DNA of 64,000 nucleotides, taken from NCBI GenBank assembly GCA_965223845.1, contig CBDCXR010000004.1, positions 2,144,001 to 2,208,000 of the forward strand, given 5' to 3'. A program made the position numbers and the translations under genes. Positions 16,303 through 23,289 of the stretch are shown here, in pieces. The notes under the pieces were generated by a model, which was given only the letters and a program-made list of their open reading frames with translations, did not search any database and was not told the DNA's origin. Each line of letters starts with the position of its first letter. Within the stretch, counting starts at the first letter, position 1. The DNA is from Planctomycetota bacterium. Its GTDB lineage: Bacteria; Planctomycetota; UBA8108; SXIK01.

Positions 16303-16438
16303 GAGACCAACCTTCGCGAGTCGGAGAGTGGATTGCAACGAGGTTCCGCGCAAAAGCAGTCCCCGAGTGATCCTAGGCCGGGAAAAGGTATAATGATCGG
16401 CGAGAATGGACCTCGGGCGCGTACCGGGAAAGCGAACG

Positions 16439-18577
16439 ATGCCAAGATCTTCCGAATTCGTGCGGCGAGGATTCGTACTCGCATTCGCGCTGTCACTGCT
16501 CCCGGTCGAGACGCCGGAGGCGCGTTGCGCGGAAGAGACTGCACCCGAAGACTCGGGTGCAGTGAATCCTGCGGACGAACTTCTCCGTCGCGCGGCAGAG
16601 TCTCACGCACGCTGCAGCAAGAAGCTCGACGACGACGCCCGCACCGAAGCAGAGTCGATTCTCGCGCGTCTGTCCGAGCGGAACGACTCACCGGCGGTTT
16701 ACGCGGTGCGTCGCTTCTACTCGATCGAGGAACTCGCGGACCGGGTGACGGAAGCGCTTCTCGAGATCGGCACCCCGGCGGCTCACACGGCGCTTGTCGG
16801 CCGAGCGGAGTCGCACGTCCGTCGCGGCCGGAGTGGAGAACGGCGCTGCCCGAACGTCGCGCTGTTCGACCGCTTCATCAAGAACGGAGTCGCTCTGCCG
16901 GCCACCGTTCTGCGCGCCCTCATCCTCTCCGATCCCCATGTGAAAGGCATCGCCGCCGGGCTCGAAGTCCCGGCCGAGTCGACGGCCGATTCAACCGCGG
17001 TCATCCTTTCGCTACTCGATGCGGAGGATTGGGGCGCGAGTCGATCGCTGCGAGTATTCGCACGCGATGACATCGTCGATCTCTTCGTCCCCTTCTTCGT
17101 TGCGCAGCTCGAGTTTCTCGAACGCACGGCCTCGTCGCGCGAGAACGCCTCGAAGCCGGCGGACGCGAAGCCGGAAGGGGACGACGCGGCAAACTCGGCG
17201 GGCACGAAATCCACAGAGACGAACTCACCGGGAGCTGGGACGGCGGTCGAGGATGCGGGAGAACCAGAATCCGGCTCCGCGGTCGATCGAACCGTCGAGG
17301 CGGAGCTCGAGGAGTTCCGTCGTCGCCGCGCTGCCCGCGCGATCGTCGAGCGACTGCGCAAAGTCGCGATGGACGTCGAGCGTTCCTCCTCCGCCCGTCT
17401 CACCGCGATCGGGACCCTGCGCACTCGGCCCGTGGTAGACCGGAGCTCCGTCGGCGTCGAGATTCTCGGATCGGAGATCGAACCGGACATCATCGTGGCC
17501 GCGGCGAGCCTCGTCGCGGTGCAGGACGCCGAAGCCGCACGCCCACACATCGCCGCTCGGCTGAAAGAGTGGACTCGCAGCCGCAAAGACGCGTCTCTCG
17601 AGGACTCGATCGCAGCCCTTTTGGAGATGGTGATCCCCCTCGGGGTCGAAGACGCCGCGCCTGCGGTCGAAAAGCTCGCGAGGTCGTCGAGCTCGATCCT
17701 ACGCGGCGCCGCGATCGCGGCGCTGCCGATCGTCGGCGCCGAGCGGGCCTACGGGCGTGTGCGCGGCGCACTCAAGGATCGGGTTTGGCGCGTACGCGAG
17801 GGGGCGATCGAGGCCTGCCGCGCGATGAAGACCGCCAAGGCCGTCTCGCTTCTGATCGACCGAATGGACAAGGAGGACGGCGAGCTGCGCGTCGCGCTCC
17901 TCGGAGCGCTCCACGATCTCACGGGAGCACCGATGCCCTACGCGCCCGACGACTGGGAAAAGTGGTGGTCCTACTCAAAGGATTCCTACCGCCCTCCGGG
18001 AGCTCGCCGGAGCGGGAAGAGCACGGTGCTCACGTTTCCCGACGCCGCCACGTACTTCGGACTCGAGGTGCTCTCGAAGAACGTCTGCTTCGTCGTCGAC
18101 GTATCCGGAAGCATGGCGGCGGCACTCGAATACAAAGGAAAAGAAACCACGCGCCTTCGCGTTCTCAAGGAACAACTCCACGGAATCCTCGACGGCTTAG
18201 CGAAAGAGGCGCGCATCAACGTGATCCACTTCCACTCGGAGTTTCGCCCGTTCTTCTCCCAGCTCGTCCCCTTGACGAAGCGAAACCGCGCCGTCGCGCG
18301 CGACCTCGTCCGCCGATTGAACGCGAGCGGCGGAACGAACATCTTCGACCCGCTCGCCGCCGCGCTTCGGGACTCGCGCGTCGACACGATCTTCCTCCTC
18401 TCGGACGGAAGGCCGGGAAGCGGAAAGTGGGTGGACACGGAGGACATCCTCGGGGCCGTGCGAGCGCTGAACCGAAAGCGACTCACCCGCATCCACACGA
18501 TCTCGATCGGCGAAGACTCGAGCCTCCTCCGGCGACTGGCGCGACAGAACTTCGGCACGTACGTCGCGTTCGACTGA
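16439..18577 (+). CDS. Exported HEAT-repeat plus von Willebrand A domain protein
   Basis: HEAT repeats (LKDRVWRVREGAIEA); VWA MIDAS FVVDVSGSM, GGTNI, FLLSDG; TATAAT at 16389. Confidence 0.88.
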   Translation: MPRSSEFVRRGFVLAFALSLLPVETPEARCAEETAPEDSGAVNPADELLRRAAESHARCSKKLDDDARTEAESILARLSERNDSPAVYAVRRFYSIEELADRVTEALLEIGTPAAHTALVGRAESHVRRGRSGERRCPNVALFDRFIKNGVALPATVLRALILSDPHVKGIAAGLEVPAESTADSTAVILSLLDAEDWGASRSLRVFARDDIVDLFVPFFVAQLEFLERTASSRENASKPADAKPEGDDAANSAGTKSTETNSPGAGTAVEDAGEPESGSAVDRTVEAELEEFRRRRAARAIVERLRKVAMDVERSSSARLTAIGTLRTRPVVDRSSVGVEILGSEIEPDIIVAAASLVAVQDAEAARPHIAARLKEWTRSRKDASLEDSIAALLEMVIPLGVEDAAPAVEKLARSSSSILRGAAIAALPIVGAERAYGRVRGALKDRVWRVREGAIEACRAMKTAKAVSLLIDRMDKEDGELRVALLGALHDLTGAPMPYAPDDWEKWWSYSKDSYRPPGARRSGKSTVLTFPDAATYFGLEVLSKNVCFVVDVSGSMAAALEYKGKETTRLRVLKEQLHGILDGLAKEARINVIHFHSEFRPFFSQLVPLTKRNRAVARDLVRRLNASGGTNIFDPLAAALRDSRVDTIFLLSDGRPGSGKWVDTEDILGAVRALNRKRLTRIHTISIGEDSSLLRRLARQNFGTYVAFD

Positions 18578-18595
18578 GGATCTTCCCGCGGGTGG

Positions 18596-19030
18596 TTACC
18601 GTGAGAGCTTTCCGAGCGCGGCGGTCAGCACGGCGCGCGCGCCGTCCGCACTCAGCTCGCTCGATTCGTCGATGCGATCGAGGACTTCACCCTCTGGAGA
18701 AAGAAGAACGACTTCCGGGACGTACCTCGTGCTCTTCCACTCACTGGCGGGGGCGCCGGCACCGGGATTTCGGGGGTCGACCTTCAGGAGCACGAAACGG
18801 TCGAGCAAGGAGCGAACTTCGGGGAGGGAGAACACCCGGTTCTCCAGCTGAACGCAAGCCGGTCACCACGGCCCGCCGAAGTTGATCAGCAGCGGACGGC
18901 CGCTGGCGCTCGCTTCCGCCCGCGCCTCGTCGTAGCTCGACAGATAGCCGAGCGCGTCCTTCGTCGTCGACTCGCCGGCCTCGCAACCGAGGAAAAGGAG
19001 AGAAACCAGGGCGCCGAAAACCCATTTCAT
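18596..19030 (-). CDS. Thioredoxin-fold lipoprotein, probable selenoprotein (in-frame TGA at 18863-18865 read as Sec; WUPAC)
   Basis: ORF-track pieces 18863..19099 and 18596..18835 are in the same frame. Read-through gives ...GRPLLINFGGPW-U-PACVQLENRVFSLPEV...RFVLLKVD...YVPEVVLLSPEG; lipobox LLFLGC. Confidence 0.88.
18827..18845 (-). promoter_or_regulatory. Candidate bacterial SECIS hairpin
   Basis: mRNA GGAGAAC-CGGGU-GUUCUCC: 7-bp stem starting 18 nt after the UGA, with a G-containing loop. Confidence 0.65.
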
Positions 19031-19632
19031 GGGAAGACTCCTCGCCAATCGGCGGTCTTGCTGTGTTCCGATTCGATCGTCGTGTCCCGGTCGGGGCACG
19101 ACGCGTCCGACCGATCAGTGTAACATCCCCCGACCGGAGGGCGTCGGACGGGACAGGAGCGCTCGCTTGCGAGTCGAGCTCGCCCACCCTCAAAAATGGG
19201 TGAAACCGGCCCTCGACCGTCTACAATCACGAGGTGCTGGGCGAGACGCGGCGAGCGGAGTCGAAGACGGATTCGGCGCCGGAGGAGCAAAAACGTGCGC
19301 GCCGGGTGGGGCCCCAGCGGTATCGGACGCGCTGGACGGATCGCTTCGAGAGACCGGAAAGGCCACCAGAGTGACGGTTGGGATCGCCTTCGGTGTGTCC
19401 GCGCGGCGCGTGGATTCCCCGTGCCCTGCAGAACCCCGTCGAACGTGGAAAACGGGGATTCTCGAGAGGGCTCCGATGAAGCCTATACCGTCCGTTCGCA
19501 TTTGAACTGAGGAGACCCGCCGCCGTGATCTGAGATCGCGGCGAGGGCGTTGCCGGGCTGAAACGGACGATCGGGCGCAGGCTCGGAGACCGTTCGCGCC
19601 TCGAGAGCAGAACGAGCAGAATCAGGGTCACC

Positions 19633-22600
19633 GTGTCTCGAATCGTCATCACGTTCCCAGACGGCTCTCAGCAGCAGGCGACGCTTCCGCACAGCGGAGT
19701 CGTGCGAATCGGACACAATCCCGCGTGCGAGGTGACCCTCGACGACCCGCAGGTGCGGCCGGTTCACTGCGCGCTCAAGTGCGCCGACGGGCGAGTCGTT
19801 CTCGTCGTTCCGGAGGGCGGCGGGTTCGTGACCCTCGGGGACGAGCCCGTGACAAAGCGTGCAATGGAATCGGGCGATGAGCTGAAGATCGGCCGCCTTC
19901 GGCTGAGCTTCGTGATCACGGACACCGATCCGAACGTCGGCACCACGCTCGCCGGCTACCACGTCGAGGCGCGGCTCGGAGCGGGAGCGATGGGGACGGT
20001 GTATCGGGCGAAGCAACTCTCGCTCGATCGACCCGTCGCGCTGAAGCTTCTTTCGCCGTCTCTCACTCAGGACCACAAGTTCGTTCAGGGCTTTCTCAAG
20101 GAGGCGCGAAACGTGGCGCGCCTCAACAATCCGAAGGTCGTCCAGATCTACGACGCCGGACAGGAAGACGGCCGATTCTACTTCTCGATGGAGTATCTTC
20201 CCGGCGGCACCCTGGAGAGCTTGCTTCGAGGCGGACAGCGCGTCGAAGTCGAGCGCGCCCTCGAGATCGCGCTCGACGCCGCCGAGGCGCTCGCGTGGGC
20301 GGAAGAGCAGGGCATCGTTCACCGCGACGTCAAGCCGGCGAACCTTCTGATCGCCGACGACGGATCGGTCAAGCTGAGCGACCTCGGCATCGCGTTCGAC
20401 GTCTCGGGCGCGACGGCGGAGCAGCAGCGCCGCGTCGGATCGCCGAAGTACATGGCTCCCGAGCAGGCGGCGGGTGAACGCGTCGATCACCGCGCGGACG
20501 TCTACGGACTGGGCGCCACCCTGTTCCATCTCATCGCGGGGCGCCCGCCCTTCAAGGGACGCACCCACGCCGAGGTCCTCAAGCAAAAGCTCGCCCACGA
20601 CGCGCCGCGTCTCTCGTCGGTCGTTCGAAACGTCTCGCCGGAAGTCGACGACCTCGTCGCAAAAATGCTCGCGCGGTCTCCCTCCGCCCGGTTCGGCAGC
20701 TGCGCGGAAATGCGGGCTGCCGTTGCCGACGTCTACGGCGTGCTCACCGGAACCGGGGAGCAGACCGACGGAGTGCGCGGTCTCGCCTCGGAGGCTTCGG
20801 CTCCGACATCGAAGCGCCACAACGAGGCGATCGTCATCGGGATCGCCTCGCTCATCGTGGTCATCGCCGGATTCTGGGCGTTCTCGGGTGGAGGCGACGC
20901 GCCTTCGCCGACTCCCGCCGATTCCGGGGGCACTGCGACGGCCGGAGAAACCGGAGACGGGACGAGTCAGCCACCCCTGAAAGGCACAACGACTCCCGGG
21001 GCGGAGACGGAGTTGCCGTCGGAGCTCGCGGACCGACTCGCGCGGATGCGGCAGCACACGACGGGCGATGGCGGGGACAGCCCGGGCAACAACGGCGGTT
21101 CGGGAGCCTCCTCGTCGACGCTCGAGGACGCCGACCTCGCCGTCACGCGCGAGTTGGGCGACATCGCTCGAGTGTGGAGGAGCGGTCTCATCGACGATCG
21201 TTCCGCCCTCCGGCGGATTGCCCGCTTTCGCGAACGCCACCCGGAGCCGAAGTACGAAGCAGACATCCGCCAGGTTCTCACCGATATCGAGAAGAGCGTC
21301 CGCGAAAAGAACGAGAAACGGCTCCAAGAGGAGCTCGAAAAGACGATCGCGCCGCTCATCGCGGCGTCGAACTTCGCTGAAGCCGAGACACAACTCGGCG
21401 AGCTAAGGGACGCATTCCCGGATCAGACGGTAACGATCGAGCGCGAGCTCCAATCGCTCGCAGAGAAGGCCTCGGCCCTCTGGGGAGAGGTCTCGGAGGC
21501 CGCCGCGACGGCCCTCAACGCCGGTAACTTCGACGTTGCGGAGCACATTCTCCGCCCTCTCACAAAATCGTTTCCGACGGTGCTTCAGGGGGAGATCGAA
21601 GCGAAGCTCGCCGAGATCACCGCGGCGAAGACGGACTACGAAACTGCCGCGGCAGGATTCGTCGGAGTCGAAGCGGAAATCCAGCACGCGATGGCGCTCG
21701 CGCGTTTCGACGAAGCGCTCAAGCTCGCGGAGACGCTCCCGCAGCCTTCGGGGGACGCACTGAGTGACCGGATCCTCAAGCAGCGCCGCGCGCTGACGGT
21801 TGCCGAAACGCAACTGTGCGCGGACGCGTGGAATCGACTCGAGCGCGGCGTCGCAGAGCTCGCGAAGGAGTCCTCTACGGTGCAGCTGCGACTCGTTGGT
21901 CAGTCCGTAGATGATGGCGCCCCGGTAAAGTTCAAGTCGGTGGACGGTCGCTTCCTCGTCTATGTCGAGCGCGACCGGACGAAACGAGTGCCGGTGCTCG
22001 ATCTAGACTCGCAGGTTCTCGAGAACGCGACGAAGAAAGCAGTCGCGGACGGAGGGGGCGAGACGCATCCGGTCGAAGCGCTCGGTGTTCTGGTCCTCCA
22101 CACTCAGGGCCCGCACCGCGCGGAGGGTTTTCTCACGAACGCGGCGGTCTTGGGCGCCGAGCGCCAAGGAGAGTACCTCCTCCGCCTGAAGATGGATGAG
22201 GCGCCGTGGCTCAAGCGCACGGTCGGATCGCTCGAGCGTCGCCGGGACGAGCTTCGCGGCGCGCCGGGCGAATCAGCGAGCGGGAAAGCGCTCGAGCGCT
22301 GGAGGGGACTCCTCGAGGTGACGAGCCGGACCATTCGAGCGACGCGCTCACGACCGGCGTACCGAGGCTACCGCGATCGGCTCGCCGCGCTCTTCCTCGA
22401 CGGTCACGCGGCGCTCGCCGGCCCCGACGGACTCGCTTCGCTCGTCAACGGCAAGGTAAAGAACAAGAGAAACGGCCTAGTCGAAATCTCGTACGACTTC
22501 AAAGAAAAGTCTCAGCTCCGCGACTTCCACCCCGTCCACCGCTCCTCGAGCAGTGTTTCGCACTATCAAAAATCCGCTCGCATCCGCGGTGAGATTCGCT

Positions 22601-23289
22601 ACCTCCGCGGGGAGCCGTTCCGCCGGCGGCTCACCGTCACCGGCCTCGTCCCCGCGAAGGGGTATTCCTTGGCGGCCCCCAACATCAACATCGCGCTCTG
22701 GACGCACGACGATGATCGCGTGTCCACGATCGGAAGCACCATCAGCAGCTCGTCCTCGTCGTCGTCATCGATCACCACGTTCTTCGATGACGATGGCGCG
22801 AGTCCAAACGACTTCATGGTCTTCGGGATCGGCTACCACTACGACACGCGCGGCTATCTGAGAGTTCGCGGCATCAACAACATCGTTCCGATGCCGGCGA
22901 TGGCGTTTCTCGGCGGCGAGCGAGGTAAGCGCCTCAGCGTCTACTCGTCGTCGCAGTGCGTCTGGGCTCGCGGGGTGAGCTCGCAGGTCAAGGGCGCTCA
23001 GGCGTTTCGCATCGCGGTCGCCCCCGAGCGCATTTCGTGGCAGGTGAACCGAAAGACGATCCCGATTCACAAGTCGGACGAATACGATCGCTTCGATCGC
23101 GAAGAGCCGTACACCGGTTCGATCACGATCTTCACGAATCGGCAGACCGTCTTCTACAAGATGCTGACCTTCGAGGGCGAGCTCAACCCCGACTGGGTCG
23201 GAAAAGAGCTCCGCCGCCGGGCGGAGAGCGACTTACGCGCGATCGAGCCATCGTTTCCGTTCAAGTCCTCCCGCAGCCGCTCGCGGTAG
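19633..23289 (+). CDS. Hanks-type Ser/Thr kinase with N-terminal FHA-like domain, TM helix and large helical/beta extracytoplasmic region
   Basis: LGAGAMGTVY, VALK, HRDVKPAN, DLG, GSPKYMAPE; TM IVIGIASLIVVIAGFWAF. Confidence 0.92.
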   Translation: MSRIVITFPDGSQQQATLPHSGVVRIGHNPACEVTLDDPQVRPVHCALKCADGRVVLVVPEGGGFVTLGDEPVTKRAMESGDELKIGRLRLSFVITDTDPNVGTTLAGYHVEARLGAGAMGTVYRAKQLSLDRPVALKLLSPSLTQDHKFVQGFLKEARNVARLNNPKVVQIYDAGQEDGRFYFSMEYLPGGTLESLLRGGQRVEVERALEIALDAAEALAWAEEQGIVHRDVKPANLLIADDGSVKLSDLGIAFDVSGATAEQQRRVGSPKYMAPEQAAGERVDHRADVYGLGATLFHLIAGRPPFKGRTHAEVLKQKLAHDAPRLSSVVRNVSPEVDDLVAKMLARSPSARFGSCAEMRAAVADVYGVLTGTGEQTDGVRGLASEASAPTSKRHNEAIVIGIASLIVVIAGFWAFSGGGDAPSPTPADSGGTATAGETGDGTSQPPLKGTTTPGAETELPSELADRLARMRQHTTGDGGDSPGNNGGSGASSSTLEDADLAVTRELGDIARVWRSGLIDDRSALRRIARFRERHPEPKYEADIRQVLTDIEKSVREKNEKRLQEELEKTIAPLIAASNFAEAETQLGELRDAFPDQTVTIERELQSLAEKASALWGEVSEAAATALNAGNFDVAEHILRPLTKSFPTVLQGEIEAKLAEITAAKTDYETAAAGFVGVEAEIQHAMALARFDEALKLAETLPQPSGDALSDRILKQRRALTVAETQLCADAWNRLERGVAELAKESSTVQLRLVGQSVDDGAPVKFKSVDGRFLVYVERDRTKRVPVLDLDSQVLENATKKAVADGGGETHPVEALGVLVLHTQGPHRAEGFLTNAAVLGAERQGEYLLRLKMDEAPWLKRTVGSLERRRDELRGAPGESASGKALERWRGLLEVTSRTIRATRSRPAYRGYRDRLAALFLDGHAALAGPDGLASLVNGKVKNKRNGLVEISYDFKEKSQLRDFHPVHRSSSSVSHYQKSARIRGEIRYLRGEPFRRRLTVTGLVPAKGYSLAAPNINIALWTHDDDRVSTIGSTISSSSSSSSSITTFFDDDGASPNDFMVFGIGYHYDTRGYLRVRGINNIVPMPAMAFLGGERGKRLSVYSSSQCVWARGVSSQVKGAQAFRIAVAPERISWQVNRKTIPIHKSDEYDRFDREEPYTGSITIFTNRQTVFYKMLTFEGELNPDWVGKELRRRAESDLRAIEPSFPFKSSRSRSR

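Follow-up and report, generated by a model that had tools for sequence, protein, structure and literature searches.

The locus studied here raises the question of whether an in-frame TGA ends a gene or encodes selenocysteine (Sec, U) in the middle of one. The window, by which we mean the whole 64,000-nucleotide stretch of the planctomycete contig CBDCXR010000004.1 that was analysed, carries on its reverse strand a frame of 144 codons with a single in-frame TGA, in the context TGG TGA CCG GCT TGC, i.e., W-U-P-A-C. The initial annotation had placed this TGA at the first Cys position of the thioredoxin W-C-x-x-C motif, and W-TGA-P-A-C was indeed read at 18865-18863. The fold features that it had named in an 88-codon continuation (FVLLKVD, YVP, and LLSPEG) were all present in the translation, where the 88 codons downstream of the TGA include RFVLLKVD, RYVPE, and VLLSPEG. 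In our interpretation, the locus is one intact gene for an exported thioredoxin-fold selenoprotein, in which Sec would replace the active-site Cys (Table 1).

Table 1. Coordinates of the predicted selenoprotein gene and of the features within and next to it.
Feature	Position in the window	Strand	Basis
Whole selenoprotein gene (predicted), 144 codons plus TAA	18596..19030	-	Translation with TGA read as U; PF13899; AlphaFold2 model
Start codon ATG; stop codon TAA	19030-19028; 18598-18596	-	Read from the sequence
TGA, putative selenocysteine codon 56 (U56)	18863..18865	-	Same alignment column in orthologues
Redox motif U56-P-A-C59, with Trp55 just before it	18854..18865	-	Translation and alignment
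Shine-Dalgarno-like GAGGAG, 7 nt upstream of the ATG (putative function)	19038..19043	-	Read from the sequence
Predicted signal peptide with lipobox, MKWVFGALVSLLFLG-C16	18983..19030	-	Sequence and the lipobox rule
T-R-Y-V-P loop within KSTRYVPE, predicted cis-proline Pro105 (18718-16)	18716..18730	-	Alignment A1; cis form expected from the thioredoxin fold
79-residue fragment, GTG start at 18835	18596..18835	-	ORF list; database protein P0001
SECIS-type hairpin GGAGAAC / CGGGU / GUUCUCC	18827..18845	-	Sequence and comparative folding

ORF calling broke the gene in two, and the protein database entry is the 79-residue fragment only (P0001), which is 99% identical to the read-through query and covers 55% of it. 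The earlier statement that gene callers split the gene was thus borne out for the C-terminal half, the only piece with a database protein. TGA is an ordinary stop elsewhere in this genome, and the neighbouring gene at 16406-18577 terminates with it. That convergent neighbour, on the forward strand, encodes a 723-residue HEAT/VWA protein, with 18 nt between its TGA stop and the TAA of the selenoprotein gene. A 1218-residue protein with FHA and Ser/Thr kinase domains is encoded divergently (19633-23289, forward strand).

The TGA was conserved among the relatives of the gene. A six-frame search over 60 related genomes gave eight clear orthologues with 42-52% identity, each with one TGA inside the match and all at the same column, in the contexts W-U-P-A-C, W-U-P-G-C, W-U-G-A-C, or T-U-G-P-C. 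A profile search covering all 59 genomes of the class detected the gene in nine, the own genome included, at E ≤ 1e-24 and with the TGA in all nine; the second TGA counted in two rows of that search is the terminal stop. Across 401 sampled genomes of the phylum, the next-best matches dropped to 84 bits or less. The metagenome scan contributed five orthologues (a count that leaves out loci L131 and L132), of which four had TGA and one (L123) had TGT. All 13 Sec-type genes (the window gene, eight from genomes, and four from metagenomes) therefore share the TGA column, and these relatives span different genera. Loci L128-L130 were rejected as orthologues, being longer Cys paralogues of ~400 residues.

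Cys was found at the TGA column in L123 and in the database proteins P0002, P0003, and P0008-P0010. The latter five are full-length forms reading WCPAC or WCPSC, and they aligned across the break. Among the protein-database relatives, 13 of the 150 listed representatives were examined, and C-terminal fragments of Sec forms stood there as separate short proteins (P0004, P0036, P0072, P0089, P0117, P0122, and P0130). Searching the genome contigs with the G037 orthologue returned just that genome and distant Cys paralogues, and the same contigs yielded nothing with the Cys orthologue P0002; DNA of a Cys form came from one orthologue only, L123 of the metagenome scan. Residues were kept on both sides of the TGA, with C59, R65, V66, S68, K83, P86, K99, P105, and E106 invariant past it (alignment A1), and the pattern is that of classical Sec/Cys pairing. 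Downstream of the TGA, pairwise differences by codon position numbered 799/629/1103, i.e., with a third-position excess. The initial annotation had looked to the Cys/TGA pairing of homologues; 12 orthologues carried TGA at this column and a minority carried Cys, so the relatives were not all TGC/TGT.

A nonsense mutation or an assembly error as the origin of the TGA, in a pseudogene or in a gene that truly has Cys (TGC/TGT), would agree with the database entry being only a fragment and with the existence of Cys-type orthologues, but it is hardly credible given the same TGA in 12 orthologues from different genera and metagenomes and the protein-level conservation downstream. The TGA also recurs with 0 differences in contigs from two public runs of a single study, which may, however, be the source of the assembly itself; no RNA run was among the sequencing runs listed. 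Genuine termination at the TGA would leave a 55-residue peptide bearing the signal peptide and a separate 79-residue protein starting from the GTG at 18835. Standard gene calling gives exactly these two pieces, and the C-terminal fragments of several relatives are likewise filed as separate proteins. However, neither half makes up a complete thioredoxin fold, the active-site motif straddles the break, the fragments of the relatives begin at differing, non-homologous positions, and the full-length Cys orthologues align over the break. We consider termination very improbable.

The machinery for reading the codon as Sec, which the initial annotation had suggested looking for, was found in the 7.93 Mb genome. 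A tRNA-Sec scored 68.1 bits (reported by ARAGORN as tRNA-SeC, anticodon tca), selA 536.2 bits, selB 320.2 bits (352.7 bits with its C-terminal piece counted), and selD 307.8 bits, all of which exceed the curated cut-offs. The selA gene was present in 57 of the 59 genomes of the class. In the own genome but outside the window, SelD forms the C-terminal part of a 784-residue ORF (L017:1393-3744), the N-terminal half of which is a pyridine nucleotide-disulphide oxidoreductase domain, making this ORF a Pyr_redox_2-SelD fusion.

The perfect 7-bp hairpin described earlier for the region after the UGA was present, composed of GGAGAAC (18845-18839), the loop CGGGT (18838-18834), and GTTCTCC (18833-18827). 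It begins 17 nt past the TGA, and its isolated fold has -9.2 kcal/mol. Taken singly, this hairpin is only mildly unusual: among 3000 random 50-nt pieces drawn from the window, 128 had a perfect Watson-Crick stem of at least 7 bp with a loop of 3-9 nt, and 623 had one when G-U pairs were allowed. The whole-region fold of the window copy showed no excess stability compared to shuffled sequences (z = +1.17), and the minimum-energy structure lacked the hairpin. An Rfam scan of 18500-19150 gave nothing at E ≤ 1. What lifts the hairpin above chance is its recurrence at one position in all 13 Sec-type genes, with 7-8 bp and 16-17 nt past the UGA, and the one seen at first in the window is this conserved one.

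When the 13 Sec genes are aligned without gaps, the stem pairs columns 29-36 with columns 42-49, and RNAalifold predicted the same stem independently. Pairing was found in 97.1% of the 104 stem cells, compared to 36-71% in slid registers. Two of the pairs showed compensatory changes, G-C to C-G in two sequences, and A-U to G-C in three with G-U intermediates in four. Equal pairing was reached by 3 of 500 shuffles, a control that overstates the significance because the sequences are related. The A-U to G-C change goes with a concerted replacement of Asn/Phe by Ser/Leu on the two arms. Twelve of the 13 Sec genes have the loop CGUGU; the window copy has CGGGU and, in addition, a U-C mismatch at the eighth pair, which makes it the weakest version. 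The Arg codon of the loop is CGT in 12 of 13 genes, compared to 17 of the 145 other Arg codons of the same genes. In the TGT orthologue L123, the loop reads AAAGU, there is a mismatch beside the closing pair, and six of the eight pairs are kept. Cys forms derived from Sec forms may, according to the literature, retain remnant SECIS-like stems. The partly kept stem of L123 would fit such a remnant, and protein conservation would explain it equally well.

For a wider control, the active-site codon was located in another 48 Thioredoxin_7 loci from the phylum, of which 11 with TGA and 25 with Cys were used, leaving out 12 near-duplicate Cys loci (L035-L039, L042-L045, L063, L068, and L078). The best hairpin averaged 8.1 bp in the 11 distant TGA loci and began 11-17 nt past the TGA (25 nt in one), compared to 5.4 bp at scattered positions in the 25 Cys loci; these figures are descriptive, as the loci are related to each other. 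Ten of the small Thioredoxin_7 genes (L053-L055, L064-L066, L069, L070, L072, and L074) read W-U-x-x-C with a 7-9 bp hairpin 11-25 nt past the TGA. In L053-L055, the stem resembles that of the window gene (UGGAGRRCG...CGUUCUCC), with a loop of 3 nt.

It is also conceivable that the hairpin is a by-product of the peptide L-E-x-R-V-F-S and that the real SelB element lies elsewhere, e.g., in a small stem directly after the UGA. Part of the stem conservation is in fact at the protein level, because the stem encodes that conserved peptide; moreover, the Cys orthologue retains six of eight pairs, and the minimum-energy fold of the window copy favours a CCGGCU/AGCUGG stem right after the UGA. Against this, the two arms change amino acids together with the pairing kept, the loop Arg is fixed to a rare synonym, and unrelated TGA-bearing Thioredoxin_7 genes with other peptides have a hairpin at a like distance while Cys genes do not. 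The alternative stem lacks conservation, and the alignment fold retains only a 3-bp version of it. A by-product is, in our view, improbable, and the comparison gives good support to the hairpin as a putative family-specific SECIS. Like the SECIS of E. coli fdhF, it is an in-ORF hairpin that follows closely on the 3′ side of the UGA and whose apical loop contains G and U. It differs from that element in its sequence, its short 7-8 bp stem, its 5-nt loop, and the lack of a predicted bulge, and its binding by SelB is putative. With the machinery, the conserved TGA, the Cys forms, and the conserved hairpin in agreement, the Sec thioredoxin-like assignment first made for this locus was supported.

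The N-terminus of the window protein reads MKWVFGALVSLLFLGC, with the codon of Cys16 at 18985-18983. A hydrophobic N-terminal segment was found in all 12 orthologues with the N-terminus on the contig, and export of the protein is predicted on this ground. The segment MKWVFGALVSLLFLG-C16 fits a lipobox, and Cys16 is probably lipid-modified in this genome. A lipobox-like G/S-C was found in just 3 of these 12 orthologues (the window gene and those of G012 and G003), the rest having a signal peptide or a signal anchor, so export appears to be a general trait of the family and lipid anchoring a local one.

Among prokaryotic selenoproteins, those with a thioredoxin fold and UxxC form the most frequent type, and the window protein belongs to this well-known kind, which will not surprise specialists. 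Its best Pfam match was Thioredoxin_7 (PF13899; E 1.4e-15, 57.6 bits, above the gathering cut-off of 27), with weaker matches to Thioredoxin_2, DsbH, and Thioredoxin. The AlphaFold2 model built from nine orthologues had a mean pLDDT of 84.8 and a thioredoxin fold, in which strand 47-51 is followed by helix 57-67, beginning right after U56, so that the redox motif lies at the N-terminus of helix 1. The closest solved structures were AGR2, ERp19/TXNDC12, Thermus thioredoxin, DsbD-gamma, and Chlamydia DsbH, and the PDB matches were all thioredoxin-fold. The family has a signature of its own, composed of GGPW-U-PAC, VKVDPR, and KSTRYVPE together with the export signal. Conserved charged residues were located near the predicted active site, i.e., D85-P86-R87, K99, R102, and E106.

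Two NCBIfam selenoprotein families were tried and rejected. The match to NF041199, the Trx7/PDZ (seleno)protein, scored 27.7 bits against a cut-off of 300, with no PDZ match, and that to NF045694 (TsoB, a rhodanese/DsbD fusion-like selenoprotein) scored 31.2 bits against 805, with the C-terminal thioredoxin part alone matching. In the family tables of the reviews PMC9312934 and PMC13188914, which were searched by term, NF041199 is the sole PF13899 family, and it resembles the window protein in being a Thioredoxin_7 selenoprotein. It differs in having ~390 residues, a PDZ domain, and the motif CxxU, whereas the window protein has 144 residues, no PDZ, and UxxC. The 354-357-residue frames with one TGA and a Thioredoxin_7 match that were observed in eight genomes of one genus (G004, G008, G010, G011, G013, G015, G018, and G019) may belong to this Trx7/PDZ (seleno)protein family.

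The same tables list, among others, thioredoxin (PF00085), a PF13098 UxxC family, and DsbA-/DsbG-like, redoxin, and TlpA-like proteins. The PF13098 family, named 'thiol:disulfide interchange protein', resembles ours in its thioredoxin fold, in having Sec as the first residue of the CxxC-type motif, in the existence of Cys homologues, and in a SECIS inside the ORF. The comparison was by catalogue description only, and by that measure the window protein differs in its best Pfam match (PF13899), its own signature, and its export signal. PF13098 itself scored 27.2 bits (cut-off 27), with UxxC present, and PF13899 fits far better. A stand-alone exported PF13899 UxxC family was absent from the tables so searched and from the papers listed by full-text literature searches, where the Trx7/PDZ entry alone turned up, and the text of the BSepDB paper had no matching terms. 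For the phylum, PMC4807772 reports two planctomycetes with Sec machinery and candidate selenoproteins.

DsbD-gamma (1uc7, 2fwf, and 1vrs) and Chlamydia DsbH (2ju5) are periplasmic, thioredoxin-like, and members of the Pfam family to which the window protein belongs. A profile search matched 2ju5 at E 7e-11, and Foldseek comparison with DsbD-gamma and DsbH gave E ~1e-6 with target-normalised TM-scores of 0.61-0.72. Both use Cys and not Sec, and their identity to the selenoprotein is 22-24%. The gamma domain of DsbD is part of a membrane protein, whereas the window protein is a separate, predicted lipoprotein. By these likenesses, the window protein is probably an oxidoreductase of the Thioredoxin_7 / DsbD-gamma / DsbH type that would act as a membrane-tethered periplasmic thiol/selenol reductase, the reductase direction being suggested by the resemblance to DsbD-gamma and DsbH.

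Sec insertion itself, as far as the sequence allows it to be predicted, would proceed as follows. UGA codon 56 would not be read as a stop; SelB with Sec-tRNA(Sec) would bind the in-ORF hairpin 17 nt downstream and deliver selenocysteine, and the U-P-A-C selenol/thiol pair would form where helix 1 begins. The signal peptide would carry the protein over the cytoplasmic membrane, and lipidation of Cys16 would tether the mature protein of ~129 residues on the periplasmic side. There, the selenolate would act as the nucleophile on disulfides or sulfenic acids of the substrate, leaving a mixed selenenyl-sulfide for Cys59 to resolve. Re-reduction of the oxidised protein would probably fall to the single DsbD-type transporter of the genome. 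We regard this explanation, a selenoprotein gene with SelB-dependent Sec insertion, as highly probable, its product being probably a tethered periplasmic reductase that DsbD may re-reduce.

No conserved redox partner gene was found next to the window locus or the orthologous loci. The FHA-kinase neighbour recurs solely in G003, a genome of the same family, among the orthologous loci; a PAS/response regulator is found in G037, G046, and mg126, FG-GAP proteins in G048, G049, and mg124, and other genes elsewhere. Because no redox partner lies nearby and the neighbours differ, it is from the likeness of fold that the reductase role and the link to DsbD are drawn.

The selenoprotein might instead be an oxidant or isomerase (DsbA/DsbC-like) or a scavenger of peroxides or sulfenates, and not a reductase fed by DsbD. 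The fold leaves the direction unfixed, and the PDI-family proteins AGR2 and ERp19 are among the nearest structures together with DsbD-gamma and DsbH. The lack of an adjacent partner gene also fits such a role, and the residues D85-P86-R87, K99, R102, and E106 could bind a small anionic substrate. However, Sec at the N-terminal, nucleophilic position of UxxC is listed for reducing thioredoxin-fold selenoproteins in the tables of PMC9312934 and PMC13188914, and the genome has a DsbD-type transporter, neither of which is decisive. We consider an oxidant or scavenger the less likely role and retain the periplasmic reductase.

The sole DsbD_TM match in the genome was an 884-residue frame located outside the window (L133:193-2844; G000:C4, ~2830225-2832876). 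This frame comprises two DsbD_N stretches, a membrane domain, and, at the C-terminus, a Thioredoxin_7 domain. An in-frame TGA makes the active site of the latter G-H-T-U-T-N-C, so that the frame looks like a selenoprotein too. As a DsbD-like protein, it is the obvious candidate electron donor. Similar frames of ~950-1000 residues with one TGA were observed in 13 relatives, and the one checked, L046, reads G-H-T-U-Q-N-C. The Sec-DsbD family was likewise absent from the tables of PMC9312934 and PMC13188914 as searched by term. We tentatively propose that the small Sec-thioredoxin is a link in a selenium-based periplasmic reducing relay of the class, from Sec-DsbD to tethered Sec-thioredoxins, an idea that is rather unlikely as it stands. 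If such a relay exists, the envelope reducing pathway would run on selenols and not on thiols.

With respect to annotation, the 79-residue hypothetical fragment would be corrected to a complete selenoprotein, and a small exported Thioredoxin_7 UxxC family, with 13 Sec-type genes known from DNA and with Cys forms, would be added to the prokaryotic selenoproteome. The well-defined in-ORF SECIS hairpin may be used to find more selenoprotein genes in Planctomycetota. Given selA in nearly all genomes of the class and the many other TGA-bearing thioredoxin-like frames, the lineage looks rich in exported selenoproteins, a richness that is relevant to the way redox stress is managed in the planctomycete envelope.
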